This document shows positions 4,717-32,000 of a DNA stretch of 32,000 nt, piece by piece. This DNA comes from Cupriavidus necator. Lineage in GTDB: Bacteria; Pseudomonadota; Gammaproteobacteria; Burkholderiales; Burkholderiaceae. Each line of letters opens with the position of its first letter. Positions within the stretch are counted from its first letter, which is position 1. The stretch is from NCBI RefSeq assembly GCF_016127575.1, contig NZ_CP066020.1, forward strand, positions 210,001 to 242,000. Direction: 5' to 3'. Both the position numbers and the translations under genes were made by a program. A model generated the notes under the pieces. It did no database searches, was not told the origin of the DNA, and saw only the letters and a list, made by a program, of their open reading frames with translations.

Positions 4717-5661
4717 ATGGGTCGCCGAAGGAAGGAGCCGTCGCTTAGCGAAATATTGATGGATGCGCCATGGTGGGTATCCGCAGCACTGGCCCTGGGT
4801 GCTTTCATTGTGTTTCGCGGGGTCGTGCCAGGGATATTCGCGTCGAGCCCATTGTTGACGGGCATTGCCGTGCTAAGCCAGTCATTAGCCTGGGTTCCCG
4901 CCGCCATGTTCGGCTTCCTGGGTGTGCTGTCATACATCCGTGCGCGGGGTAGGGCGGGGGCCAGGCAGCAAGAAATCCCGATGAGGGCTCGGCGCTCCCG
5001 CACGAGCCGGCCGTCGTCGGCCCCCGTGTCACCCCGGTATTCCGATGAATCCGCCGAGTCGAAGGAGGCCGTTAGCCCGCTGGCGAGGACAGCATCCGTA
5101 CCTGAGAAGCCAGAGATCAATAGCTGGACGCTGGATGCCCTCAAGTTGTTAGAGTGGAAGCGATTTGAGCTGCTTTGTGTTGGGTACTACGAGGCGATGG
5201 GGTTCGTGGTCAAGACTGTGCCCCATGGTCCCGATGGCGGCATCGATGCAACCTTGTACAAGGCAGGCCTGGATGTTCCCGTGGCCGTGGTCCAATGCAA
5301 AGCATGGAGTAAGCCGGTGAAGGTGGAGCAGGTCCGCGCACTTGCCGGTGTCATGCACGAACACAAGGTGCGTAGGGGCGTTTTCTGGTCGTTGTCTGGC
5401 TATGTAGGGCGACCGGTAAAGGAGTCGGCAGAGCGAGCGGGCATTCAATTACTTGATGGTGCGGGCATCCTGGAACGGATCTGCGCGCTCGATCAGTACA
5501 AGCAAGCGACGTTGCTGAAGCAGGCGTTTCGCGGCGACTACCGGACGCCTACATGCGCGGCCTGCGGAATCAAGATGGTTGAGCGGCAAGGGTCAGCCGG
5601 CGCATTCTGGGGTTGCCAAAACTATCCCGGTTGCAAGGTCAGACTGTCCCGCAACGTCTAG
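4717..5661 (+). CDS. Membrane-anchored Mrr-type (PD-(D/E)XK) restriction-endonuclease-domain protein with a C-terminal topoisomerase-type C4 zinc finger
   Basis: Two N-terminal hydrophobic helices (WWVSAALALGAFIVFRGVV, LAWVPAAMFGFLGVLSYI) are followed by a Ser/Arg/Pro-rich linker. Then comes LEWKRFELLCVGYYEAMGF...GPDGGIDATLY...VAVVQCKAW...VRALAGVM, an Mrr_cat-like core. The C-terminus is CAACGIKMVERQGSAGAFWGCQNYPGCK, a zf-C4 topoisomerase pattern. Confidence 0.85.
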   Translation: MGRRRKEPSLSEILMDAPWWVSAALALGAFIVFRGVVPGIFASSPLLTGIAVLSQSLAWVPAAMFGFLGVLSYIRARGRAGARQQEIPMRARRSRTSRPSSAPVSPRYSDESAESKEAVSPLARTASVPEKPEINSWTLDALKLLEWKRFELLCVGYYEAMGFVVKTVPHGPDGGIDATLYKAGLDVPVAVVQCKAWSKPVKVEQVRALAGVMHEHKVRRGVFWSLSGYVGRPVKESAERAGIQLLDGAGILERICALDQYKQATLLKQAFRGDYRTPTCAACGIKMVERQGSAGAFWGCQNYPGCKVRLSRNV

Positions 5662-6093
5662 TCTAGGAACCGGCTCGATCAATCATCGCCGCCGCGCTCT
5701 CAGTCAACAAGGTCACTCCCGGGGAAGGCTGGCTTTCCGGCAGGCTCGAGCGCCTATTTTCTGCCTTGCTACTGACACGGGTGCTTTTAGGTTGCGAAAT
5801 ATGTCTCATGAACGGTCTGCGGCATCGCCAGAGCCAGGTCTTCATCACTGGAGAGGCGCAGCCCGGCACGCCGGCAAGGACTTCCGTCTCAATCCGGTCG
5901 GCTCTTCCCGCCCCTCAAGCGACCGTCGTCGCTCTACAAAGCAGCCGGTCAGGCGGCGGCCGTTGCACGGCGGCGTTTTATGAGGCGATGACCGATTCGA
6001 GTCGCAAGTCGCTCGCCGTGATCGGCGCGTCGGCAGGCTGGAGTCTCAGATGCCCCGACCTCGGCGCGCGGCTTAAGCCAGCTGCGGGCGCAT

Positions 6094-6759
6094 TCACTCC
6101 ATAGCATGAAGCCAGGAAACTGTAGCGCCAACATGCGTCGCCGGAACCCATCTGCCTATCGCACGCTTGACAGAACCGGAGAATCCGACCGTATCTGCGA
6201 CCGAAGGCACTATCTGCTGGATCCCATCTGATATTGGAATAGCACGTTCGAGTAATTTTGAGCTTTCTTTATCGCCCTCGACCACCACTAGCTTGTCCTC
6301 ACGTTGCACGCGACGAAAGTGGGCATTGTTCAGGTGCGATGAGATGGCTGGTGGCCACGGAAGCTCCGGGCTCATTGCATGAACGGCATGGACTACGAAG
6401 TAGCCGATTACACAGCAAGTACCGGTTGTGATGCCATCCCCCTGGAAGCCCGCATAGAAAACAAGATAGTCGCCACGATTCAGGGTTAATAGCTGGGAGC
6501 GCTTTGGATGACTAGGCTCCCCATAGCTGTAGGTGACGAACTCCGGGTCGTAGTGAGCCGGCGCATCCAGGCCAATGACTTGCGCGAGGGTGCTGCCCCG
6601 TCGCGACGGAATGTCGCCGTATCTAAGGGCATTGTGTACTGGCGCTCCTTCAGGAATAGGCACGTATTCAAAGCTGCGATCGGCTTCAATAGGAGATAGC
6701 CGACCGCCGCATCCACGGTCGATTCCTACGCGCAGGAAGAGAATTTTGGTTTCTGACAT
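6094..6759 (-). CDS. Hypothetical protein, downstream gene of a two-gene cassette; possible Nmad3-like family (unverified recollection)
   Basis: The ATG at 6759 gives MSETKILFLRVGIDRGCGGRLSPIEADRSFEYVPIPEG. The G-x-D-x-x-x-GG...SPI...PIP pattern recalls a widespread uncharacterised family. The ORF is long and clean with non-shadow amino-acid composition, in a visibly A/T-richer segment. It overlaps the upstream gene's end by 34 nt. Confidence 0.6.
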   Translation of the reverse strand: MSETKILFLRVGIDRGCGGRLSPIEADRSFEYVPIPEGAPVHNALRYGDIPSRRGSTLAQVIGLDAPAHYDPEFVTYSYGEPSHPKRSQLLTLNRGDYLVFYAGFQGDGITTGTCCVIGYFVVHAVHAMSPELPWPPAISSHLNNAHFRRVQREDKLVVVEGDKESSKLLERAIPISDGIQQIVPSVADTVGFSGSVKRAIGRWVPATHVGATVSWLHAME

Positions 6760-7250
6760 TTTGCTGAGAAAACCTGTGTAGCGCAATGAGACTGTTTCGT
6801 ATCGATTTTTCCTTTACCCAGCGCTGGCGAGGGGGGCGCGTCATGCGCAAGATGCAGGATAGCCTTCAGTTCCGCATACATATCTTCGAACACACTGTCA
6901 GATATGATGACGCGTCGATTTGTTTTCAGCATATGCCCATAAAGCAGCGGGTAGTCCGACTGAAGCAATGGCCCGTGCTCGTTGAGCAGAATGAAACGCT
7001 CAAAGGCCCATATCGCGTGCCCTTTGGGACTGACGCCGCACGCTTTCCTGCTTATCCCAACCCAATTCACTTTCTTCGCTATTCCTTCGTCGCCAGGCCA
7101 CGGGCTTACTCCTCCAATACCGATTACGTGGTTGAAGCTCCAGTCCCGTACCGATCCCATGCAGTCATTGCATCCAAAGAGGCCGCTTTCGTTGGGGTCA
7201 CCCGTATGGGTTCTTTTGTAGATGAGAATTCTTGGTCTGCTCTCCGGCAT
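6726..7250 (-). CDS. Hypothetical protein, upstream gene of the two-gene cassette
   Basis: The ATG at 7250 gives MPESRPRILIYKRTHTGDPNESGLFGCNDCMGSVRDWSFNHVIGIGGVSPWPGDEGIAKKVNWVGI. Composition is balanced and the region is A/T-richer. I recognise no family. Confidence 0.6.
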   Translation of the reverse strand: MPESRPRILIYKRTHTGDPNESGLFGCNDCMGSVRDWSFNHVIGIGGVSPWPGDEGIAKKVNWVGISRKACGVSPKGHAIWAFERFILLNEHGPLLQSDYPLLYGHMLKTNRRVIISDSVFEDMYAELKAILHLAHDAPPSPALGKGKIDTKQSHCATQVFSAKCQKPKFSSCA

Positions 7251-7584
7251 TGCTCTGTCTCGATGGGAGGGGCGCAGCGGTCATCGCGGAAATCGCTGCA
7301 ATCGTGGAAAACGGGCAATGGACAGATTGTCGCTAATCTGGACGTGCCAGTCCAACGACCGGTTGAATCCGCGGCCGGCTACCGCCGTTGCGCTACCTCC
7401 AGACTCGCAAACAAGAGGAGCAGCTGCCCGCGTGGTCAGGATGCTCGTGACGCCGGTGTTACCAGGGCGCGGCAATAAGGTTCGATAACGTTGCCTTATC
7501 GGCGAGTAGGCGCCACGAGGAATACAGAACCGGGGGAAGGAACAGCTGTCGTAGATGCTGCTTACTGCACTTTACACCAAGAAT

Positions 7585-7664: not shown

Positions 7665-7934
7665 ATGATCAGTGCCGACCTTGGACAGCAACTTGAGCGC
7701 TACGTGACTGAACTTGTCGCCTCGGGCCGCTATGGCTCTAAGAGCGAAGTACTGCGCGAAGGCGTACGTCTGATTCAGGACCGTGAAGCGCAACTGATGG
7801 CGCTGGACGCGGCGCTCGCGCAAAGCCTGGCCGAGGCGGACGCGGGCCGCGGCACCGACGCAGCCACCGTGTTCGACCGCCTCGAGGCCAAGTATCGCGC
7901 CGCGGCAGGCAGAACACCCGGGCACGGCGCATGA
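7665..7934 (+). CDS. parD: ParD-family type II antitoxin
   Basis: MISADLGQQLERYVTELVASGRYGSKSEVLREGVRLIQDRE is the canonical ParD (RHH) N-terminus. A GAGGAG ribosome-binding site (RBS) precedes the ATG, and the stop overlaps the parE start (ATGA). Confidence 0.9.
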   Translation: MISADLGQQLERYVTELVASGRYGSKSEVLREGVRLIQDREAQLMALDAALAQSLAEADAGRGTDAATVFDRLEAKYRAAAGRTPGHGA

Positions 7935-8236
7935 TCGTCGTTCGCCTGACGCCGCTGGCCGAGGCCGAACTCGAAGCCATCGCCGACTACATTGCCCGCG
8001 ACAACCCGCGCCGCGCGCTTTCCTTCGTGCGGGAGTTGCGCGACCGGTGCCTGTCGCTCGCAGACATGCCGCTTGCCTTCCCGCTGGTACCTCGCTGTGA
8101 GGACCGAGGCGTCCGGCACCGTGTACACGGCAACTACCAGATCTTCTACCGCGTGGTGGGCGATCCGCCTGCGCGAATCGACGTGCTGCACGTGCTTCAC
8201 AGCGCCCGCAACTATGCCGCGCTGCTGTTCAACTGA
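7931..8236 (+). CDS. parE: ParE/RelE-family type II toxin
   Basis: LTPLAEAELEAIADYIARDNPRRALSFVRELRDRC..L...P...YQIFYRV......IDVLHVLHSARN is the typical ParE pattern. The gene is translationally coupled to parD. Confidence 0.9.
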   Translation: MIVVRLTPLAEAELEAIADYIARDNPRRALSFVRELRDRCLSLADMPLAFPLVPRCEDRGVRHRVHGNYQIFYRVVGDPPARIDVLHVLHSARNYAALLFN

Positions 8237-8854: not shown

Positions 8855-9142
8855 ATGTCGATGGCACGATACCTCTTGTTTGTGGCCCGCGCCCTCGGCG
8901 TAGGCGCCCTGATCATGATCGTCGCCATCGTCTCCCGGCAAGTATATTTGCGCAGCGCTGCGGAGGCTGCTGACGCCGGCGCAGACGAGGAGTCTGCGGA
9001 GGCTGCCGACGCCGGCGCAGACGAGGAGCCTGCGACAATGATGTTGATACGCTGCGAGACGATGCACGAACGTCTGCAGAACCGGCACAGCTCGGCTGCG
9101 AAGGCTGACGAGCGGCCACGCGCTCGTTGCAGGGAGTCCTGA
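8855..9142 (+). CDS. Small hypothetical protein with an N-terminal hydrophobic helix and a duplicated acidic 12-aa unit (weak call)
   Basis: MSMARYLLFVARALGVGALIMIVAIV is followed by AEAADAGADEES and AEAADAGADEEP, encoded by the 36-bp tandem repeat. Confidence 0.3.
   Translation: MSMARYLLFVARALGVGALIMIVAIVSRQVYLRSAAEAADAGADEESAEAADAGADEEPATMMLIRCETMHERLQNRHSSAAKADERPRARCRES
8959..9030. repeat. 2 x 36-bp tandem direct repeat
   Basis: TGCGGAGGCTGCTGACGCCGGCGCAGACGAGGAGTC at 8959-8994 is followed by TGCGGAGGCTGCCGACGCCGGCGCAGACGAGGAGCC at 8995-9030 (2 mismatches). A third unit begins with tgcga at 9031. Confidence 0.85.
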
Positions 9143-10159: not shown

Positions 10160-11182
10160 TTAGCGGGACGTCCCCTTCACCGGTCGAGTACTGACGCGCT
10201 TCCTTGTTGCAGCCTCGTTCTGCGTTGCAGGCGGGGTCGCCACGTTTGCTTTACCGGCAACAACGTTGCCAGATGCTGATTTGCGTGGCCCTGCGGATGC
10301 CTTGACTGATGACTTCTTGGTTACCGACTTATTATCCTCCGCAGTCTTCGCATTCGCAGGTGGCTTACGGGTTGTCGAGACGGCCGACTTGGTCGCCTTC
10401 TTCGCTGTCACCTTACCTGCCGGTGGCTTGTTAAGTCTGACAGCAGGCTTCGGCGGTGGGTTAGCGTCGGCCATCTCGATGCCAAACACGTCGGCCACCA
10501 GGGCGTCGTCGAGCACCTTGCTGGTGGCGGGTCGTTTTGTCGATTTGGGCAGGCCAGCGCCGGCCTGCCTGACGAGATCATTGGCATCGACGCGGCGCAG
10601 GGCGAAGAGCAATTCCGGCTGTTGGTCGAGCCGCGCGCCGATGCCGTAAAGTACGGCAGCAACGTGCTTGCACATTGACGCCCAGTCCGGACAACTGCAA
10701 CTGAACCTGATGTCTTCCGGCATCGGGAAAAGACCGCTGCGAGGTTTGCAGATGCGCTCCATCACGGCTGTCGAGAGCTTGCCCTGCAAGAGTTCCACGA
10801 TCGAATCGATCGATTCCGCGCAATCGGCGCCGATCGCTCGCCATTGCTTTGCGGGACATGCCGTCACGGTCACAGCGACCGTGTACAGACTCGAACCCAT
10901 TACCTGCGCGCGGACTTCGCCTGCCGTAATCTGAAGGTCGATCACGGAACCGTTGCGCACATAGGTACGGCCGCGCGGCAGGCGGTTGGCATAGTCGCTG
11001 TAGCTTTCCAGATTGTCGCACCAGGCCTTGCCCCAGAAGGTCTTGGCGATGGCACCGCGGTATGAGGCGATTGGCGACAGCACCGAACCAGCCTTCTTCG
11101 CCTTCTCGGCGGCTCGTTCAGCCTTCTTTCTGCGCTCGGCGACTGAGACATAGGGCTTCCATCCCCCGTAACCGTAACCCAT
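10160..11182 (-). CDS. SWIM zinc-finger protein (SNF2-helicase partner) with a Lys/Ala/Pro/Thr-rich basic C-terminal tail
   Basis: The N-terminus is WKPYVSVAERRKKAERAAEKAKKAG...FWGKAWCDNLE...RLPRGRTYVRNGSV. The SWIM motif is FSCSCPDWASMCKHVAAVLY. The last ~115 aa (about 10160-10505) are a low-complexity basic tail (KVTAKKATKSAVSTTRKPPANAKTAEDNKSVTKKSSVKAS...). An AAGAGGAA RBS lies 18 nt after the helicase stop. Confidence 0.85.
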   Translation of the reverse strand: MGYGYGGWKPYVSVAERRKKAERAAEKAKKAGSVLSPIASYRGAIAKTFWGKAWCDNLESYSDYANRLPRGRTYVRNGSVIDLQITAGEVRAQVMGSSLYTVAVTVTACPAKQWRAIGADCAESIDSIVELLQGKLSTAVMERICKPRSGLFPMPEDIRFSCSCPDWASMCKHVAAVLYGIGARLDQQPELLFALRRVDANDLVRQAGAGLPKSTKRPATSKVLDDALVADVFGIEMADANPPPKPAVRLNKPPAGKVTAKKATKSAVSTTRKPPANAKTAEDNKSVTKKSSVKASAGPRKSASGNVVAGKANVATPPATQNEAATRKRVSTRPVKGTSR

Positions 11183-11200
11183 TCCGGTTCCTCTTGACGA

Positions 11201-13900
11201 TCAGTTTTCTTGCGCGGCATGAACGTCGAGCTTCACGAGATCGAGCAATTCACGATTGCTCATCTCGGTAAGCAGGAGTTCTGCGCCGCCTTCCAACACA
11301 TCCTTCACCAATTGCTGCTTCGCTTCGATCAACTGGTCGATACGGTCCTCGACCGTGCCACGGCAGATAAACTTATGCACCAGGACGTTCCTCCGCTGGC
11401 CGATACGAAATGCACGATCAGTCGCCTGGTTTTCCACCGCCGGGTTCCACCAGCGGTCGTAGTGGATCACATGCGACGCGGCGGTGAGATTCAGACCTGC
11501 CCCACCGGCCTTGAGCGAGAGCACGAAGAAGGGGGTCAGCTCATCTTCCTGGAATCGCTTGACCAGTTCGCGGCGCTTGGCGACCGGGGTGCCGCCATGA
11601 AGCACCAGACCTTCGCGGCCAAAGATCGAACCTAGAAAAGCCGCCAGCGGCTCAGTGGTCTCGCGGAACTGGGTGAATACCAGCACCTTTTCCTGTTTGG
11701 CGGCAATGACTTCGGCCAGTTGGCGCAGGCGGGCGAACTTGCCACTGTCTTCCGCCTTCCAGGCGGCGTCGCCCAACCACTGCGACGGATGATTGCATAT
11801 CTGTTTGAAGCGCATCAGGTAGCTCAGCACGACACCCTTGCGACCGATGCCGTCGGCATCTTCAAGCGCGGCAGCCAGATCCTTCACCGCACGCTGATAC
11901 AGTGCCGCCTGGCTCGGGCTCAGGTGGCACCAGGCCTTGAGCTCGGTCTTGTCCGGAAGGTCGTCGATTATCCGCTTGTCGGTCTTCAGGCGGCGCAGGA
12001 TGTAGGGCCGTACGAGCGTTCGCAGCGGACCGAAGTGCTCGGCCTTCGCCAGCCGCCTGGTAAAGTCGGCAAAGACTTTGTCTGAGCCCAGCAATCCGGG
12101 GTGGGTGAAATCGAAGATGGACCACAGATCGGACAGGCGGTTTTCCACGGGAGTGCCGGTCAGCGCGATGCGCGATTGTGCCTGGAGCTGCTTGACCTGT
12201 CGCGTTTGCTTGGCGCCCGGATTTTTTATCGCCTGTGCTTCGTCGACAATGGCAACGCGCCATTGGAAGGCTCCCAGTACCGGCTGGCGAAGAAGCGCGC
12301 CAAAGCTGGTGATGACGAGATCGATGTCCGCAAGTCGCGCCGGGTCCAGCGCACGCAATTCGGCCGTCGGCATGGCCGACGGATGGGCGATCAGTAGGCG
12401 CAAGCCGGGGGCAAAGCGCTCAGCCTCTGCCGCCCAGTTGGCCAGCAGCGATGCAGGGGCGACCAGCAGACTGGGCCGCGCCTCGGCACTTTCTCGCTTC
12501 AGCACGAGCAGAAGCGAGAGTACCTGCATGGTCTTGCCCAGGCCCATATCATCCGCCAGGCAAGCGCCCAAACCGAGCCGGGTGAGCAGGTACAACCACC
12601 GCACGCCGGCCTGTTGGTAGGGCCGCAGGGTGGCCTTCAGTTCCGGTCCCGGGCTGATCTGCGCCAACCCCTCTGGCTGACGCAACTCCTGCAGGGTGTC
12701 AGCCAGCCAGGGCCCTGCAACAAGCTGCGACCAGTCGCGGTCAGCGGGGTCGGCACTATCGTCGAGCGAAACCCCCGCCAGAAGGCGTAGAGCCTCATTA
12801 AGCGGCAGACCGCTTCGCGCCGCCTTTTCCATGGCCTCGAATCGCTTCATGAGACGACTGAGCTTTTTCTTGTCCACCTCGACCCAGCGACCACGGATGA
12901 GCTGCAAGCCGTCGGCGCCTTTGAGCAGATTCCTGACCTCGGTGGCGCTGAGACACTCGCCATCGAGCGAAACCTCCATGCTAAAGTCCAGCAACGCGTC
13001 TTTGCCCAAGAGCGAGGGTGGCCGTGCTCCGACACTGGCTTTCACAACGGGACGAGCAGGGCGGCCCGCCTGCCAGACGCCTGGCATGCGTACGACAATC
13101 CCGGCAGCTTCGAGTTTGGACAGGTCCGAGAGAAGGCGATGGGCATCGAGCGGCGTCCAGCGCAGCGGATGGTATATCTCGCCGGTATCCACCATTTCGC
13201 GAAGCCAGTCGCAGTGTTCCGCGGCGCGCTGCACCGGCAGCAGTAATGACAGGAGCTGCGCCTTGCTCCTGACTCCCGAGAATTCCGCCAGGGCCTGCGA
13301 CAGTGGCTGATGTTGCGCTTTACCATGGGCCGACAGACGCGACGTGTAAGTCGCAAGGAAGGCGAACGGTGACTCCGGGTCCTTGCGGTTCTCAGCAAGG
13401 TTGAAATGCACGCGGCCGACGAGATTCCAGGCCGGGTGACGCAGCTTGAGGAAATCCTGAAGCGAGACGTTTGCGGTCGCCAGTTCCTGGTGCAAGGCAG
13501 TATCGATCTCGCCCCACAACGTGCCCAGCACGGCTGGCGTCAGATACTCGCCGCCCGTCATCGGCGGTGCATCGTCAATCATGGCATCGAAATCCTTGGC
13601 AGCAGGCGTTGCGACCGCGATCTCGCCGCCTTCGGGCGTGGCGCACAAGGCAGTGACATAGCGCGCCGCAAAATCACGCCACCAGGCCCATGCAGGGGGC
13701 AAAATGCGGCCGATTTCGGCCGTTCCCAGGTGCAGCAGGCCATGTCCCGCGCCAAGCGCAAAAGAACTCTCAAGCCGCTGTCGCGTTTCATCTGCCAAGA
13801 TTGGCGCGGCGTCCTCCGGCACTGCAAGCAGGTGCCCGCCGGGCGTCAGGTGTGGCACAAGAATGTCGGGCGCAGTCACAGGTGCCCGTTCCAATCGCAC
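11201..13900 (-). CDS. SNF2-family DEAD/DEAH helicase (HelZ/YwqA-like, with an SNF2-associated N-terminal region)
   Basis: LRPYQQAGVRWL...LADDMGLGKT (motif I), AIVDEAQAIKN (DEAQ box), LTGTPVENRL, and the C-terminal helicase block GGAGLNLTAASHVIHYDRWWNPAVENQATDRAFRIGQ. The start is a GTG at 13900 and is uncertain. Confidence 0.9.
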   Translation of the reverse strand: MRLERAPVTAPDILVPHLTPGGHLLAVPEDAAPILADETRQRLESSFALGAGHGLLHLGTAEIGRILPPAWAWWRDFAARYVTALCATPEGGEIAVATPAAKDFDAMIDDAPPMTGGEYLTPAVLGTLWGEIDTALHQELATANVSLQDFLKLRHPAWNLVGRVHFNLAENRKDPESPFAFLATYTSRLSAHGKAQHQPLSQALAEFSGVRSKAQLLSLLLPVQRAAEHCDWLREMVDTGEIYHPLRWTPLDAHRLLSDLSKLEAAGIVVRMPGVWQAGRPARPVVKASVGARPPSLLGKDALLDFSMEVSLDGECLSATEVRNLLKGADGLQLIRGRWVEVDKKKLSRLMKRFEAMEKAARSGLPLNEALRLLAGVSLDDSADPADRDWSQLVAGPWLADTLQELRQPEGLAQISPGPELKATLRPYQQAGVRWLYLLTRLGLGACLADDMGLGKTMQVLSLLLVLKRESAEARPSLLVAPASLLANWAAEAERFAPGLRLLIAHPSAMPTAELRALDPARLADIDLVITSFGALLRQPVLGAFQWRVAIVDEAQAIKNPGAKQTRQVKQLQAQSRIALTGTPVENRLSDLWSIFDFTHPGLLGSDKVFADFTRRLAKAEHFGPLRTLVRPYILRRLKTDKRIIDDLPDKTELKAWCHLSPSQAALYQRAVKDLAAALEDADGIGRKGVVLSYLMRFKQICNHPSQWLGDAAWKAEDSGKFARLRQLAEVIAAKQEKVLVFTQFRETTEPLAAFLGSIFGREGLVLHGGTPVAKRRELVKRFQEDELTPFFVLSLKAGGAGLNLTAASHVIHYDRWWNPAVENQATDRAFRIGQRRNVLVHKFICRGTVEDRIDQLIEAKQQLVKDVLEGGAELLLTEMSNRELLDLVKLDVHAAQEN

Positions 13901-15151: not shown

Positions 15152-15239
15152 GGGCCGGACGCCGTGTTGGTTGCAGGCAGCGGACTCATAATCCGCCGGA
15201 GACATCCCACCGTGGGTTCGAATCCCACCCGGCCCACCA
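15152..15239 (+). tRNA. Class-II-type (long variable arm) tRNA with anticodon CAU; CCA encoded
   Basis: My manual fold of the 88 nt is:
- Acceptor stem GGGCCGG/CCGGCCC (7 bp).
- A8 C9.
- D-stem GCC/GGC (3 bp).
- D-loop GTGTTGGTTGCA, which contains the GG.
- A26.
- Anticodon stem GCGGA/TCCGC.
- Anticodon loop C-T-CAT-A-A.
- 15-nt variable region CGGAGACATCCCACC (GGA/TCC mini-stem).
- T-arm GTGGG-TTCGAAT-CCCAC.
- Discriminator A, then CCA. Confidence 0.75.
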
Positions 15240-22863: not shown

Positions 22864-23559
22864 CTATGGACGCTGCCTTTCCCGCGACTTCTGCGCAGTG
22901 TCGTCGGTTTCCTGCAGGGAATGAAGAAAATCTCCCACCAGTGCGACACACTCGTCAAAGCATCTGTTGAAATTAATCCGCTGGATCCTGTCGAACTGCT
23001 CACGCATGATCGGCGGGCCGGCCTCGACCTGGCCCCGGAAGGCGGAGGCGTGTCGAAGCAGAAACGGCGCAGCGTGTGTGTGTGCCGTCGGTTCATGCTC
23101 GACCACGACGGCCAGGTCAAAGAGATCCCGCGCAGTGGCACGGTCGCCACGATGGTAAAGCTTTTTGGCAACGATCTCGGCCGCGGTCTCCACCTTGACG
23201 GATTGCCCCATGATCTCCCAGATTTCGAATGGCTTGTCGGTCAGGTTGGGCGAGGCCACGACGTCGATTTCCCCAGCGTCGAGCACCAGCTTCACGAAAT
23301 CCCCTTGCTCAACGTAGTCGCTCGTGATGCTTTCCGCGGCCTCGCTCAAACGCGGCGACACGAATCCCAGGCATTGCGGATCCGGGACAAAGAGGTCGAT
23401 ATCGCGGGAAAAACGATGGCGGTACCGAAGCATCAGGACCGTCCCGCCGCCGAAGGTCCAGAACGGCTCAATGCCCCCGTGCTTTCTGACCTCCTCCATC
23501 AGCGTAAAGGCATGAGGGAACAGGCTTTCCCAGATGTCGCCCTTTAGTTCAACTTTCAT
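22864..23559 (-). CDS. AbiEii/AbiGii-family nucleotidyltransferase toxin (DUF1814-type)
   Basis: The internal ATG at 23559 gives MKVELKGDIWESLFPHAFTLMEEVRKHGGIEPFWTFGGGTVLMLRYRHRFSRDIDLF (GG...SxDIDLF NTase motif), then ETAAEIVAKKLYHRGDRATARDLFDLAVV. Its start overlaps the stop of the upstream gene (ATGA). Confidence 0.85.
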   Translation of the reverse strand: MKVELKGDIWESLFPHAFTLMEEVRKHGGIEPFWTFGGGTVLMLRYRHRFSRDIDLFVPDPQCLGFVSPRLSEAAESITSDYVEQGDFVKLVLDAGEIDVVASPNLTDKPFEIWEIMGQSVKVETAAEIVAKKLYHRGDRATARDLFDLAVVVEHEPTAHTHAAPFLLRHASAFRGQVEAGPPIMREQFDRIQRINFNRCFDECVALVGDFLHSLQETDDTAQKSRERQRP

Positions 23560-24059
23560 GCCCACAGGCCTCCGCGCGTGACCATCAAGGTCTGCGCAAG
23601 CCGCCTGAGGTTCTTCCAGATGTCGGCTGGATTCCGATGTTGCTTCGCCGCTACCTCCGCGACCACCTTGGTGACGAGTTGCAGAGGCGCCTCGTCCAAG
23701 ACATGGGCCACCTGTGGACGATACTCCGACGGCACCTCGCCGGTGGCGAGGGCGCGCTCGAGCTCGTCTGGCGTGAGCTCGCCGGTGTAGCTCACGTTGG
23801 CGCCCTTCGCGGCCATCCACAGCGCCCGCATTGGCGACCCGCTAGCCAGGCGGCGCTCATCGGGATCGTTTATATCAAGTGCTAAGCCGAGCACATCCAT
23901 CAGTCGCCCGAGCGACTGGAGCGTAGCGTTGACGCTGCCGTGTTCAATGCCGTTCAGCGACTGGCGCGACAGCCCTGCCATGTCGGCCAGCTGCTGTTGG
24001 GTCAGCCCCAAGGCAACCCGCTTGCGCTGGATCGCGTTGCCCAAGAGAGCGGGATTCAT
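23556..24059 (-). CDS. XRE-family HTH protein, putative cognate antitoxin
   Basis: The ATG at 24059 has a GGAGA RBS. MNPALLGNAIQRKRVALGLTQQQLADMAGLSRQSLNGIEHGSVNATLQSLGRLMDVLGL is a classic HTH_3/XRE domain. It is followed by a C-terminal extension of roughly 100 aa and is coupled to the NTase gene. Confidence 0.8.
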   Translation of the reverse strand: MNPALLGNAIQRKRVALGLTQQQLADMAGLSRQSLNGIEHGSVNATLQSLGRLMDVLGLALDINDPDERRLASGSPMRALWMAAKGANVSYTGELTPDELERALATGEVPSEYRPQVAHVLDEAPLQLVTKVVAEVAAKQHRNPADIWKNLRRLAQTLMVTRGGLWA

Positions 24060-26129: not shown

Positions 26130-29100
26130 TCAGGTTCCTGTCCGAATGCGGGACCGGGATTTTGTCGTCGCGGCGACGGCCGGTGCCGCCGGGATCGGCT
26201 CAAAAAGGGCCTCGATGTCTTCGGCGGAGAATTTGACGGCGCCGGCGGCATCCTCCGACAGGATCGCCTCGGCCAGCGCGGCTTTCTGCGCTTGCATCGC
26301 GACGATTTTCTCCTCGACACTGCCACCGGTGATCAGCTTGTAGACGAACACGGGCTTATCCTGGCCAAGGCGGTGTGCGCGGTCAGTAGCCTGATTTTCC
26401 ACAGCAGGATTCCACCAGGGATCGTAGTGAATGACAGTGTCGGCCGCTGTCAGGTTCAGGCCAACGCCACCGGCCTTCAAGCTGATCAGGAAAAGCGGTA
26501 CCTCGCCTTGCTGGAAGCGTTCGACCGGGGTGATGCGGTCCGTGGTATCCCCGGTCAGCATGACGTAGGGAATGCCGGCGTTTCGCAGGGCTGCCGCAAT
26601 GAGATCCAGCATGCTAGTGAACTGCGAGAACAGCAGGATCCGACGGCCTTCCTCGATAAGTTCGGGCAGCATGTGCAGCAACAGGTCAAGCTTTGCCGAC
26701 TCCTTGATCCGGGCCGCCTCTTTGATCTTGACGAGCCGCGGATCGCAGCAGACCTGGCGCAGTTTGAGCAACGCCTCCAGCACGATGATGTGGCTGCGCG
26801 CGAGGCCCTTGGCAGCGACGGCCGCCCGCACCTTTTCCTGCATGGCAGCGCGCACTGTTTCGTACAGATCGCGTTGTGCGCCTTCGAGTTCCACCGTGCG
26901 CACGATCGTCGTCTTCGGGGGCAGCTCGGTGGCCACCTCATCCTTGCGCCGGCGCAGCATGAATGGCCGGATGCGCCGCGCGAGCAGGTCGCGTCGAACG
27001 GCATCGCCGCCCTTTTCGATGGGAGTGCGCCAGCGTCGCGTGAAGTCCTGGCGGGTACCGAGAAAGCCGGGCAGCAGGAAGTCAAACTGCGCCCACAATT
27101 CACCGAGATGGTTTTCGAGCGGCGTGCCTGTCAGGCAGAGGCGGTGTCGCGCACGCAGTGTTCGGATGGTTGCGGCGGACTTGGTGGCGGCATTCTTGAC
27201 GTATTGGGCCTCATCCAGAAGCAGCAGGTGATAGTCGTGGCCGGCAAGGATTGCCTCGTCACGCCACAGCAAGGCGTATGTGGTCAGGATCAGGTCGTGC
27301 TCGCCGATCTGGTCAAAGCGATCGTGACGCTGGGGGCCGTGCAGATCCAGCACGCGCAGCGTCGGCGTGAAGCGCTGGGCTTCCTCGCGCCAGTTGTGCA
27401 CGAGGGTCGTCGGCACGACGATCAGCGCAGGCCGGTCCAGCCGGCCCCGTTCCTTTTCCGTGAGGACGTGCGCAAGGGCCTGGATCGTCTTGCCCAGTCC
27501 CATGTCGTCGGCCAGTACCCCGGACAACCCGTGCTCGCGCAGGAACTGCATCCAGGCGAGCCCCTGGCGCTGGTAAGCACGCAGTTCGGCCGTCAGGCCG
27601 CGCGGCACGGGCACGTCTGCCATCCCGGGACCCGCCATCAGCCGCTGCGCGAGCTGCCGGATCGATGCCGCGCCGTCAAACTGCCAGCGCCCGGTCTGAT
27701 CCAGGGCATGGAGCCGGGCTGCATCCCACTCGGAAATGCGCATGCCGGTGTTGAGCGCGTCGAACAGGTCGATCAGCACGCGCACGACGGGTTTCAGCCG
27801 GTCGGCACCCAGGCGCAGCCGCTCGTTGCGCTCGGTCTTCAGATCAATCGCTTCGTCGTCGGGGATGCCATCCAGCCTGCCTGACAACCAGCGCGAATCC
27901 CGGCGAAAGAGGTCAGCCAGCAGCGGCTCCAGACGCACCGTACGGCCGTTGACAGTGATGCCCATCTCGACGTCGAACCAGCCATCACCGGTCTGACGCA
28001 GGCGGCCGTCAATGGCCTCGATCTCAATCACATTGTGCCGAAACGCGTCCGTCATGACGACGCGCCAGCCACTTGCGCGAAGGATCGGAAGCAGCACCTT
28101 CACGAGGCTTGGCCAGCTGGCATGGTCCTCGGGGCCGAGCATGTCGGCCGGAAACGGGGCTGGCCCAAAGACATGGTCGGCCCGAATCTTCCGGAACCCG
28201 GCCTGTTGCAGTTCTGTCAGACGCTTGCGCTCGAGATCGGCGTCCCGTTTGATCTGGACGACCTCGCCACCGGTGGTTTGAAGGAGAGTGGTGCTGCTGT
28301 GCGCCGGGAGGCTGTGTCCTGCGTAATCAAAGCTGACCGTCGCAAAATCCTGCGCCGAGGCCCATGTCGACAACGTGTCCAGGGCCAGGACGGGCACCGG
28401 CGCGCAGTGGATGCTTCGCACCGACGCCGTTTCATGCGCAGGCGGCATCGGGAGTTCGGGCGCCACGTCACGCAGCACATTCCCAACCAGTGCGGCCTCG
28501 TCCAGCGTAATGGCCGGCATGGACAGGAAATCGGCGAGCTGTTCGGAGGGCCAAGGCATCGCCAGGATGCCGGCTTCACCAGCATCCGCGTCGACGTACC
28601 AGCACGGCTGGGTGCTCGTCAGCAACAGGGAAGCGGGTGGTTCGGCTTGCAGAAGCGGCCGCACGCGCGTGTCGGGCTGCGCCTGCCAAGTCAGTTGCGC
28701 GCCGCGCGCGGCTCCGACTTGCAGCGCACAGTGCGTGCCGGGATAGTGTGAGCCCGCGGGCGAAAAGGAAACAAAAGCCCGTCCGGTTGCCATCAGTTGC
28801 TCCAAGATGACGGCACCGGTTGCGCCCCGCAGGCCAAAACCACCCATATAGGAGGCATGTGAGCGGCCCAGCCATAGCCCGCGCAGGATCGGCAGATCCG
28901 CTTCGGTAACAAATTTGGGGGGTTCGACCAGCGCCTTCTCGATGTTTTGCCACGGATCGTCAAGCGAGCGAATCGTGCCGTCGGCGCCAACGCGTGCCTT
29001 GTAAATCGTTACCTCGCCGCCGCGGTACGATTGGCCGATCACGTAGGCTAGGGCATGCGTGGGCTTGGACGGCTTTTTCTTGGCCGCGGGATTGGCGGCC

Positions 29101-29486
29101 GTGCGCCTGGCACGAAAGCCTTCAAGCCAGCTCACCAGTTCCGCGCGCACGCCGGTGGACGGTGGCTTCGGCTGGTGCGCCAGGCCGGCGATCAGCAGCG
29201 CTGCCACATGCTTGCAGTCGACCCCAACTGGACACGTGCATTCGCCTTCCACCCACATGTCGTCGTCGACGTCGTGGAAATACACACGCACGTCATACGG
29301 ACGCGTGCGGGTGCCTTGCACCAGGCCCGCCAGGGTGTCCTCGTCGATCCAGCGCAACTCCGAGACGGCACTCGCATAGGGACGCGCCTTGGACACCGTG
29401 AACGGATCCAGCCATTGCGCGATTTGCCTGGATTGGTAGGGGACAGACATTGACTGAAGGAGGCCGGTGGACAACGTCGGGAGCAT
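26130..29486 (-). CDS. Fused SWIM zinc finger plus SNF2-family helicase (1118 aa)
   Basis: The N-terminal SWIM motif is VEGECTCPVGVDCKHVAALL. Helicase motifs are LRAYQRQGLAWM, LADDMGLGKT, LLLDEAQYVKN, LTGTPLENHL and GGVGLNLTAADTVIHYDPWWNPAVENQATDRAHRLGQ. Confidence 0.9.
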   Translation of the reverse strand: MLPTLSTGLLQSMSVPYQSRQIAQWLDPFTVSKARPYASAVSELRWIDEDTLAGLVQGTRTRPYDVRVYFHDVDDDMWVEGECTCPVGVDCKHVAALLIAGLAHQPKPPSTGVRAELVSWLEGFRARRTAANPAAKKKPSKPTHALAYVIGQSYRGGEVTIYKARVGADGTIRSLDDPWQNIEKALVEPPKFVTEADLPILRGLWLGRSHASYMGGFGLRGATGAVILEQLMATGRAFVSFSPAGSHYPGTHCALQVGAARGAQLTWQAQPDTRVRPLLQAEPPASLLLTSTQPCWYVDADAGEAGILAMPWPSEQLADFLSMPAITLDEAALVGNVLRDVAPELPMPPAHETASVRSIHCAPVPVLALDTLSTWASAQDFATVSFDYAGHSLPAHSSTTLLQTTGGEVVQIKRDADLERKRLTELQQAGFRKIRADHVFGPAPFPADMLGPEDHASWPSLVKVLLPILRASGWRVVMTDAFRHNVIEIEAIDGRLRQTGDGWFDVEMGITVNGRTVRLEPLLADLFRRDSRWLSGRLDGIPDDEAIDLKTERNERLRLGADRLKPVVRVLIDLFDALNTGMRISEWDAARLHALDQTGRWQFDGAASIRQLAQRLMAGPGMADVPVPRGLTAELRAYQRQGLAWMQFLREHGLSGVLADDMGLGKTIQALAHVLTEKERGRLDRPALIVVPTTLVHNWREEAQRFTPTLRVLDLHGPQRHDRFDQIGEHDLILTTYALLWRDEAILAGHDYHLLLLDEAQYVKNAATKSAATIRTLRARHRLCLTGTPLENHLGELWAQFDFLLPGFLGTRQDFTRRWRTPIEKGGDAVRRDLLARRIRPFMLRRRKDEVATELPPKTTIVRTVELEGAQRDLYETVRAAMQEKVRAAVAAKGLARSHIIVLEALLKLRQVCCDPRLVKIKEAARIKESAKLDLLLHMLPELIEEGRRILLFSQFTSMLDLIAAALRNAGIPYVMLTGDTTDRITPVERFQQGEVPLFLISLKAGGVGLNLTAADTVIHYDPWWNPAVENQATDRAHRLGQDKPVFVYKLITGGSVEEKIVAMQAQKAALAEAILSEDAAGAVKFSAEDIEALFEPIPAAPAVAATTKSRSRIRTGT

Positions 29487-29872: not shown

Positions 29873-30145
29873 ATGCAAACTATCCCGTTTTCTGAGGCAA
29901 GAGCGCACCTCGCTGATGCGCTGCGAGGTGTAGAAGTGGCACAAGAGCCCCTACTGATCTCCCGGCGCGGGCAGGCTGCCGGCGTCTTGATGTCGTGGTC
30001 TCAATATCGACAGCTGGTTGGGTCTTCCTCTGGCTTTTCTGCGCGTCTGGCAGAGTGGCGCCAACAGCATTTGACAGAAGAGAATGAGAGCGATCCCTTT
30101 GCGCAAGTACGCCAACCCGATGGGGGAAGAGAATTCTCATGGTGA
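29873..30145 (+). CDS. phd: Phd/YefM-family type II antitoxin
   Basis: MQTIPFSEARAHLADALRGVEVAQEPLLISRRGQAAGVLMSWSQYRQL is the typical Phd/YefM N-terminal domain. Its stop overlaps the vapC start. Confidence 0.85.
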   Translation: MQTIPFSEARAHLADALRGVEVAQEPLLISRRGQAAGVLMSWSQYRQLVGSSSGFSARLAEWRQQHLTEENESDPFAQVRQPDGGREFSW

Positions 30146-30564
30146 GCGCCGTGAGTTGGTTGCTCGACACCAACATTGTTTCAGAGGCCATGCGGCCGAG
30201 ACCTGAGGTCGCGGTAACGGACAATTTGGCCCGCTACGAGGGGGAGCTAGCAATTCCGGCCCCGGTCTGGCACGAACTCCGTTATGGCTGGTTGCGCATG
30301 CCGGATGGCCAACGGAAGGACGCAGTTGGCCGTTTTGTGCAAGATGTCGTGGGCACTTTGCCAGTCTTGCCTTACGACGCTGCCGCAGCGCGGATCCACG
30401 CGGAGCTGCGCCAGTCACGCGAGCGGGCTGGATTCACATTGCCATTCGTGGATGGGCAGATTGCATCGGTTGCGATAGCGCATGGGCTAACCTTGGTGAC
30501 ACGCAATACGAAGGATTTTTCGGAATTGACTGGTTTGCGGCTGGCGAACTGGTTCGTCCCCTGA
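30139..30564 (+). CDS. vapC: VapC PIN-domain toxin
   Basis: WLLDTNIVSE (first PIN Asp), then PFVDGQIASVAIAHGLTLVTRNTKDF (conserved D and TxN). The length is 141 aa. Confidence 0.9.
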   Translation: MVSAVSWLLDTNIVSEAMRPRPEVAVTDNLARYEGELAIPAPVWHELRYGWLRMPDGQRKDAVGRFVQDVVGTLPVLPYDAAAARIHAELRQSRERAGFTLPFVDGQIASVAIAHGLTLVTRNTKDFSELTGLRLANWFVP

Positions 30565-31573: not shown

Positions 31574-32000
31574 ATGTTCGTTCAGGTCAGCGCCGCCGCC
31601 GTGCCGCGGGCGCTCCGGGGGGTTGCGCTGGTCGACAGCAACCACATGCCCAGGTACTGGGCCGCGGTCTGGCTGGTCATCGCGGGTGCTCAATGGGCAA
31701 AGTCCACGCAGACCATGCGGCTGCGGTACATCGAGAACCTGTATGAGCATGCGGATCGGTCATTCAAGGCGAATGCCCTGGATGACGCGCTATCTGACCT
31801 TGACGATGCCCGGCTTGCGGACATTCTCGAGTCGTGGTTCGTGAGTCTGCGTAATCAGCCTGTCGCCACTCGCAGCAATGAGGACCGGTGGCAGACCGGA
31901 CTGGCATTCGTGACATCGGTGGTCACATGGCTGTCGAAGTCGGCGGACGCGAAGATGCGACAGATCGAAGCGCGCATCCACCGACTATCAACTCTTTACC
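31574..32000 (+). CDS. Probable tyrosine recombinase/integrase, N-terminal part only; runs off the right edge
   Basis: This frame is not in the ORF track because no stop occurs before the window end. My translation from the ATG at 31574 is MFVQVSAAAVPRALRGVALVDSNHMPRYWAAVWLVIAGAQWAKSTQTMRLRYIENLYEHADRSFKANALDDALSDLDDARLADILESWFVSLRNQPVATRSNEDRWQTGLAFVTSVVTWL. It resembles N-terminal regions of integrase-family proteins of Burkholderiaceae islands as I recall them. The catalytic domain is not in the window. Confidence 0.45.
   Translation, partial: MFVQVSAAAVPRALRGVALVDSNHMPRYWAAVWLVIAGAQWAKSTQTMRLRYIENLYEHADRSFKANALDDALSDLDDARLADILESWFVSLRNQPVATRSNEDRWQTGLAFVTSVVTWLSKSADAKMRQIEARIHRLSTLY

Follow-up and report, generated by a model that had tools for sequence, protein, structure and literature searches.

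What do two small overlapping genes on a Cupriavidus megaplasmid do, and do they form a unit? The question is raised by positions 6094 to 7250 of a 32,000-nucleotide (nt) stretch of Cupriavidus necator DNA (NZ_CP066020.1, positions 210,001 to 242,000; the whole stretch is called the window below, and coordinates count from its first letter). The window is identical to positions 178857-210856 of pHG1 (NC_005241.1), the megaplasmid of C. necator H16. A model that read only the sequence (the original prediction) had described this segment as a two-gene cassette of unknown function in a defence-rich neighbourhood.

We found that the segment from about 5920 to 7361 is a horizontally mobile two-gene module, in which a protein of the Nmad3 family (gene B) is paired with a member of a family without earlier description (gene A). 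We are confident of this identity and architecture. Our best explanation of the whole, in which the two proteins would also form a heteromeric complex that acts on modified nucleotides, has a probability of about 0.5.

The cassette and its two genes

As predicted, the segment contains two intact, co-oriented open reading frames (ORFs) that overlap by 34 nt. Both lie on the minus strand; the original prediction gave no strand, and its "upstream protein" is the product of gene A.

7250..6726, minus strand: gene A, ATG start and TAG stop, 174 amino acids; family without earlier description, alternative partner of Nmad3
6759..6094, minus strand: gene B, 221 amino acids counted from the ATG; Nmad3 family, predicted PUA-like fold
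6726-6759, minus strand: 34-nt overlap of A and B; overlapping or closely spaced junctions with A before B are also present in other loci
6726..6815, minus strand: basic, disordered, cysteine-bearing tail of the A protein, about residues 146-174 (...SHCATQVFSAKCQKPKFSSCA), where the predicted local distance difference test score (pLDDT) drops

The 34-nt overlap suggests translational coupling. All three motifs that had been quoted from the upstream protein are present in gene A (YKRTHTGDPNESGLFGCNDCMGSVRDWSFNHVIGIGGV), and the N-terminus of the B protein, read from its ATG, is MSETKILFLRVGIDRGCGGRLSPIEADRSFEYVPIPE. The public annotation starts gene B at a TTG at 6786, in frame and 27 nt upstream of the ATG, which yields a hypothetical protein of 230 amino acids. 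The homologues of B are 219-224 amino acids long and their starts correspond to the ATG at 6759, so this ATG is the likely start. Gene A is in the gene tables of neither pHG1 record (NC_005241.1, NZ_CP039289.1). These tables omit pseudogenes, and gene A is therefore either unannotated or flagged as a pseudogene. In the window, both ORFs are full-length compared with their homologues and keep every invariant residue.

Each gene has relatives across phyla; both are real genes and not chance ORFs. The lower G+C content (GC) noted from the sequence was confirmed. The 1157 nt from 6094 to 7250 have a GC of 0.537 compared with a window mean of 0.602 (standard deviation 0.027), which is the minimum among equal-sized windows sampled every 50 nt across the window. 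The third-position GC of A and B is 0.55-0.57, compared with 0.70-0.81 in the neighbouring genes.

Gene B is a member of the Nmad3 family

The downstream protein had been tentatively likened to the Nmad3 family, and this proved correct. Gene B matches Pfam PF18754 with 84.2 bits (E = 1.5e-23), where the curated gathering cut-off is 27, with residues 5-178 aligned to model positions 1-194 of 247. It has at least 155 relatives, found across phyla. PF18754 is present in all its close homologues, and NCBI or UniRef lists several of them as "Nmad3 family putative nucleotide modification protein". B also matches phrog_34025, a phage protein family without known function, and a search of PDB sequences found no match to a solved structure.

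Both the N-terminal R-x-G-x-D-x-G-x-G signature and the FEYVPIP motif of Nmad3 are present in B. R10, G12, D14, G16, G18, F30, E31, P34, I35 and P36 are invariant in an alignment of 38 sequences, the window protein among them. About 40 columns of the family alignment are invariant; many of these are polar, namely R10, D14, E31, H69, D71, Q89, N145, H147, R150, D178 and R199.

The AlphaFold model of B, built with 38 homologues, has a pLDDT of 93 and a predicted template modelling score (pTM) of 0.91. When it was compared with PDB by Foldseek, the matches listed were all PUA-like domains. They comprise the N-terminal domain of McrB, free and bound to DNA with 5-methylcytosine (6p0f/6p0g), MJECL36 (2p5d), VcaM4I (6yex), YTH domains, PH1033, ASCH domains (5gus, 5y6c) and human THYN1. 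The best matches have a probability of 0.99-1.0 and a target-normalised template modelling (TM) score of 0.46-0.56. Gene B is thus an Nmad3 protein with a predicted PUA-like (EVE/YTH/ASCH-type) fold. Known proteins with such a fold hold a flipped-out modified base or nucleotide in a pocket. The names of the Nmad families derive from gene-neighbourhood inference only.

Gene A belongs to a family without earlier description

Gene A has no match among Pfam, NCBIfam, PADLOC, PHROG and PDB sequences, and a Pfam scan of all 37 aligned family members returned nothing usable. One search, with matches up to E = 1e-15, returned 56 clusters of relatives (90% identity). A library of 1.84 billion proteins contains 637 clusters of the family at the 50% identity level. 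The best 150 matches are nearly all single-domain proteins of about 110-265 amino acids. A collection of 185,579 species genomes contains 183 matching stretches, and the hosts belong to Pseudomonadota, Bacteroidota, Planctomycetota, Acidobacteriota, Verrucomicrobiota and Desulfobacterota, with one cyanobacterium.

The family alignment has 22 invariant columns with the motifs YKRTHxGDP, FGxxDCMGxVR, VIGxGG, WxG and GP. Its invariant polar residues are K12, R13, T14, H15, D18, C30 and R35. The AlphaFold model of A has an overall pLDDT of 86.5; residues 1-145 are confident, and pLDDT is about 50 beyond residue 145. The tails of the family are rich in cysteine (7.5% of residues, compared with 1.6% in the body), and 63/181 (35%) of the proteins end in Cys.

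Foldseek searches of PDB with the A model gave mostly YTH, McrB N-terminal and PH1033 domains at the top, with SRA and ASCH domains further down. All of these matches are weak; the best is a YTH domain with a probability of 0.57. We tentatively assign a PUA-like fold to A on the basis of this model. The viral structure library BFVD contained no match.

A and Nmad3 are linked across phyla

We examined two samples of loci: 80 genome loci selected solely for encoding A, and 80 metagenome loci selected solely for encoding this Nmad3 subfamily. Nmad3 was immediately beside A in 25-26 of the 80 A loci, and no other recurring neighbour of A was found among them. All ORFs within 3.5-4 kilobases (kb) of A and of Nmad3 were clustered in both samples. 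No third conserved gene emerged from this clustering, which returned only Nmad3, A or Nmad2, and antisense shadow ORFs; likewise, no modification enzyme was conserved beside this Nmad3 subfamily in these loci.

Over all sampled loci, there are 39 pairs of A and Nmad3. A precedes B in 18, B precedes A in another 18, and the genes are convergent in 3. The two genes usually overlap or are separated by less than 35 nt. We also identified two natural Nmad3::A fusion proteins, P0155 (381 amino acids) and P0204 (398 amino acids), whose Nmad3 domains are of different subtypes. A survey of homologues had been proposed to see whether the pair is conserved together, and the adjacency, the two gene orders and the fusions show that it is.

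Solo A genes have heterogeneous neighbours, including AAA_13 ATPases, a TIR protein, a PIN protein and ordinary metabolic enzymes. In Vibrio cholerae (GCA_015741235.1, L167 1-675), the A homologue is a single-gene superintegron cassette. It is bounded by 133-nt VCR-type repeats, the same as between all cassettes on the contig, and its neighbours include acetyltransferases, ParDE, Fic and DUF6933. In 2.9 million viral contigs, A is very rare (4 matches, none partnered) and this Nmad3 subfamily was not found. The scarcity of the pair in viruses is evidence neither for nor against a defence role.

A takes the place of Nmad2

The adjacent partner in the 80 Nmad3 loci is A in 13 and Nmad2 or an Nmad2-like protein in 33; another 26 have no partner, and 8 are cut by a contig end. 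In a neighbour-joining tree of Nmad3, the A-partnered and Nmad2-partnered genes interleave. The clade of the window has as its sister a gene partnered by Nmad2; inside a clade with Nmad2 partners there is one gene with A as partner, and the reverse case occurs too. Nmad2 or Nmad2-like proteins are also fused to Nmad3 in single ORFs, in both orders (L100 5170-6675, L104 1495-3021, L111 392-1855; L117, L119, L120, L124).

A and Nmad2 have in common a disordered basic C-terminal tail with cysteines, the last of them at or near the end. The proteins with a Cys within their last six residues are:

A family: 137/181 (76%)
Nmad2-like partners of Nmad3: 22/30 (73%)
Classical Nmad2: 54/110 (49%)
Nmad3: 7/120 (6%)

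The adjacency, the fusions, the interleaving in the tree and the cysteine tails lead us to regard A as a functional equivalent of Nmad2. A behaves as a protein that works in Nmad2's place, and this does not make it a member of the Nmad2 family. Gene A did not match the Nmad2 hidden Markov model (PF18753) at E up to 10, and only one of the 37 family members gave a score (E = 0.33). In profile comparisons by hhalign, shallow alignments of A and Nmad2 gave P = 0.014 with a probability of 3.2%, and deeper profiles, built from 180 A sequences and about 130 Nmad2 sequences, gave P = 0.04 with a probability of 1.3%. In a control comparison of A with Nmad3, a spurious alignment reached P = 0.008. Since the spurious control scores no worse, we do not claim homology between A and Nmad2. 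Every comparison of the two profiles aligns the same N-terminal stretch, hY..TH..G..P.P.G.F...C...R....D..IG.G. A strong match of A to an Nmad3 alignment was rejected as an artefact, as the fusion protein P0155 had been included in that alignment.

Three further observations concern the partners of Nmad3. In the Nmad2-like::Nmad3 fusions, the Cys-bearing tail serves as the inter-domain linker. A "long" Nmad2-like subgroup of about 255 amino acids, with the motifs YFGPCK and GLHLET, falls under the Pfam threshold for Nmad2 and is clearly related to it by profile comparison. One Nmad3 clade on peat-bog metagenome contigs (L125-L159) has neither A nor Nmad2 as partner. It has a fixed gene context, with a protein of about 190 amino acids upstream, one of about 305 amino acids downstream and a methyltransferase, and may be a domesticated, stand-alone form.

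The cassette is a mobile unit

The separate horizontal acquisition that had been suggested by composition was supported by DNA homology. Homology to four other copies, found on two metagenome contigs, in Bordetella genomosp. 5 and in Paraburkholderia phenoliruptrix, ends at about 5920 and about 7361. The cassette has a GC of 0.52-0.54 in every host, compared with 0.57-0.62 in the flanks. By blastn, the window matches the closest metagenomic copy (L081) at 5920-7361 and the Bordetella copy (L002) at 6053-7360. Two non-coding parts move with the genes:

7251..7361, minus strand: conserved 5' leader of about 110 nt, part of the mobile unit (homology to L081, L002 and L082)
5920..6093, minus strand: 3' flank, approximate downstream edge of the mobile unit (homology to L081)

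An alignment of upstream regions revealed a perfect palindrome in the leader, CAGATT-N6-AATCTG at 7323-7340, which could be an operator. A sigma-70 consensus scan found no match within the leader (7251-7361). We also considered a 15-nt imperfect inverted repeat (87% complementary), located on both sides of the genes at 5985-5999 and 7273-7287, as a boundary of the cassette. It was rejected, since we roughly estimate that chance alone would produce about two such pairs in 2.1 kb; the repeat is probably not meaningful.

The flanking genes are outside the module

The flanks are as the original prediction described them, with an Mrr-like restriction endonuclease at 4759-5661 (plus strand) and parD/parE at 7665-8236 (plus strand). 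The nuclease is convergent with B, with about 430 nt between the two genes, and ParDE is divergent from A. The argument that had been drawn from this position proved weak. The neighbours in the window never recur beside A or B in the 160 other loci, where we looked for the Mrr nuclease, ParDE and eight others in all, among them cold-shock/DUF1294, AAA ATPase and SWIM/SNF2 proteins. Furthermore, the cassette is missing from related Cupriavidus plasmids that contain the nuclease region (query 1 to about 1416, window 4500 to about 5915). We conclude that the Mrr nuclease and ParDE lie outside the module.

We then looked for enrichment near known defence genes, as the earlier note had also proposed. 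When 138 neighbours of A-B pairs were scanned against Pfam and PADLOC, without a baseline, the picture was mixed. Some neighbours elsewhere are of defence or mobile type (Lamassu, methyltransferases, a type I specificity subunit, resolvases, IS21); they are mixed with transporter and metabolic genes, and we draw no conclusion of enrichment.

Proposed function of the pair

We propose that A and B would be made together through overlapping, probably coupled translation, and would assemble into a heteromeric complex. Its target would be a modified or non-canonical nucleotide, either free or within DNA or RNA, which it would recognise. The complex would probably act chemically on this nucleotide instead of merely reading it, because many invariant polar residues are present in both proteins. 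The basic, cysteine-bearing tail of A may bind nucleic acid or metal. The setting would most likely be conflict between the host and mobile elements and not core metabolism; we favour this role because of the mobile, patchy distribution of the pair and the phage protection given by the DS-4 operon, described below. We infer all of these points, from complex formation, ligand and catalysis to the function of the tail and the biological role, and a complex acting on modified nucleotides is tentative as a mechanism, with the odds rather against it.

A broader form of this proposal is speculative. Here A (or Nmad2) and Nmad3 would be a self-contained two-component enzyme or sensor, of a class not recognised before, for modified or non-canonical nucleotides in conflicts between hosts and mobile elements, and A would be a non-homologous or extremely diverged replacement of Nmad2. 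The tail with its terminal Cys would be essential to the mechanism, for example by thiol chemistry on a base or nucleotide, or by contributing to a metal centre that exists only when the two proteins are bound together. We regard this generalisation as a long shot.

Several observations weigh against our explanation. About two-thirds of the A genes have no Nmad3 within 8 kb, and the 26 partnerless Nmad3 loci are nearly all of one clade on near-identical peat-bog contigs. The many solo A genes and the Nmad3 clade without a partner imply that the complex is not obligatory. The comparison of A with Nmad2 stays at noise level (hhalign P 0.014-0.18), so their homology is not significant, and the PUA-like fold of A depends on a weak assignment (E = 0.18, TM 0.41-0.50; 0.41/0.50 for the best YTH match). 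No defence model of PADLOC-DB 2.0 matched A or B at E up to 1. Many A-B neighbourhoods hold genes for ordinary metabolism and transport. Literature searches for Nmad2, Nmad3, PF18753 and PF18754 returned no characterisation and no relevant mention in a main text. In addition, the two nearest genomic relatives carry a decaying cassette, with sequencing errors not excluded. In P. phenoliruptrix (L001 8001-8698), Nmad3 is truncated to about 78 amino acids, and the pair is closely downstream of Lamassu LmuA; in Bordetella genomosp. 5 (L002 8001-9092), both genes are frameshifted. These decayed copies indicate that selection on the cassette is not strong everywhere.

Comparison with known systems

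The known systems nearest to the cassette are the Nmad2-Nmad3 pairs (PF18753 and PF18754). They share the same Nmad3 component, a tight two-gene operon without another conserved gene, both gene orders, natural fusions, and a partner tail with a near-terminal Cys. The difference lies in the partner: A is not recognisably Nmad2, and its core is about 145 amino acids compared with about 200 in Nmad2.

The only experimental link between an Nmad protein and phage defence that we found is the DS-4 ("NTTI") operon, which contains Nmad2 and gave phage protection in E. coli (DefensePredictor study, PMC13092281). Its five genes encode a thymidylate synthase, a deoxynucleoside monophosphate (dNMP) kinase, a 5-hydroxymethyldeoxyuridine (5-hmdU) DNA kinase-like protein, a TIR protein and Nmad2; the last is named in the supplements of that study and not in its main text (PMC13092281). 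DS-4 contains neither Nmad3 nor a protein of the A family, whereas the cassette has neither the DS-4 enzymes nor a TIR effector.

Type IV readers of modified bases (the McrB N-terminal domain, VcaM4I, and EVE/SRA/YTH-nuclease fusions) share the fold class of B, with Foldseek probabilities of 0.94-1.0 to 6p0f, 2p5d and 6yex. In contrast to these readers, the pair has no nuclease fused to it or conserved beside it. The top matches are only 10-13% identical to B, which has many invariant polar residues, and the query-normalised TM is 0.37-0.40, which is low because B is larger (221 amino acids) and has extra elements. ASCH-domain enzymes, which include the ZmASCH ribonuclease and YqfB-type N4-acylcytidine amidohydrolases, resemble B in their PUA-like fold (5gus, 5y6c), and the polar conservation of B is enzyme-like; B has no match to them at the sequence level.

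The new element here is a second family of Nmad3 partners, which has no earlier description and is absent from Pfam. The original prediction missed the interest of this upstream protein. Nmad3 itself, although uncharacterised, and Nmad2 as its usual partner were already known. The cassette is a minimal, naturally mobile version of 1.4 kb and two genes in the genetically tractable C. necator H16, with clear mutational targets, and could be used to probe the binding, catalysis and immune role of Nmad proteins. If it gave no phenotype, our result would be merely a tidier annotation of two hypothetical genes.

Alternative explanations

The main rival is a role in nucleotide salvage or sanitation, in which A and B, together or separately, would hydrolyse free modified nucleosides or nucleotides as part of accessory metabolism. 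YqfB, an ASCH-domain amidohydrolase, acts on N4-acetylcytidine. The ASCH matches of B (5gus, 5y6c), the numerous invariant polar residues in both families and the lack of a conserved effector gene beside the pair are all in keeping with such an enzyme. So is the frequent solo occurrence of A near tetrahydrofolate dehydrogenase, pyridoxal phosphate enzymes, polyprenyl synthase and short-chain dehydrogenases, and so are the transporters and metabolic genes close to A-B pairs. However, the metabolic operon context is not consistent from locus to locus, and the distribution of 183 stretches over the 185,579 species genomes is patchy and rare. The unit is mobile and of atypical GC, and is found also as an integron cassette and in the accessory region of a megaplasmid. 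A basic, disordered, Cys-bearing tail would moreover be unusual in a small-molecule hydrolase. We consider this explanation unlikely, with a small but real chance of being correct.

The two genes could instead be a toxin-antitoxin or addiction pair that maintains the megaplasmid, one protein being toxic and the other neutralising it. This would suit a small, overlapping and mobile gene pair in a region with many toxin-antitoxin genes (ParDE next to the pair; AbiE, RelB and VapC nearby). However, Pfam and NCBIfam searches revealed no toxin or antitoxin domain, and no DNA-binding domain of the antitoxin type was found. Both partners are frequently alone, which a toxin could not tolerate, stable fusions are known, and the orders A-B and B-A are equally common. 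These features make an addiction pair improbable.

A third explanation, that A and B are reader subunits of the adjacent membrane-anchored Mrr-type nuclease in a type IV restriction system, is largely refuted. It draws on the matches of B to the McrB N-terminal domain and VcaM4I, on the fact that PUA-like domains often confer specificity on type IV nucleases, and on the short distance of about 430 nt between the nuclease (4759-5661) and the end of B. The nuclease, however, is convergent and not co-transcribed, lies outside the DNA block that moves with the cassette, is present in related Cupriavidus plasmids whose nuclease region has no cassette, and has a homologue beside A or B in 0/160 other loci. 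Its chance is very slim.

That A and B are functionally unrelated, or decaying passengers adjacent by chance, is hardly credible: the truncated or frameshifted copies in the nearest genomic relatives and the absence of gene A from both pHG1 gene tables would fit, but adjacency in 39 sampled loci across phyla and in three arrangements, the fusion proteins, and the full-length window ORFs with all invariant residues contradict it.

Other features of the window

The cassette is surrounded by an accessory part of the megaplasmid, in which we noted several toxin-antitoxin genes, AbiE, a protein of the H-NS family, two large helicases and an integrase. Several of these genes are encoded in the spans 10160-13879, 22864-24059 and 26130-29450 (minus strand) and 30139-30564 and 31574-32000 (plus strand). 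The first helicase has about 890 amino acids; it is annotated as DEAD/DEAH box, and we read it as SNF2-type. With it is a 340-amino-acid protein that, from its sequence only, we read as a SWIM zinc-finger protein. The other genes are an AbiEii/AbiEi pair, an apparently orphan RelB/DinJ antitoxin, the second helicase of about 1,100 amino acids, VapC and a tyrosine recombinase.

We also identified a plasmid tRNA gene at 15152-15239 (plus strand). It has a CAT anticodon, is called as tRNA-Met and is unusually long (85-88 nt); the plasmid gene table, which omits RNA genes, does not list it. Finally, a small hypothetical ORF (8915-9142) contains, at 8958-9034, a 36-nt tandem repeat of 2.1 copies (95% identity) that translates into the repeated peptide AEAADAGADEE.

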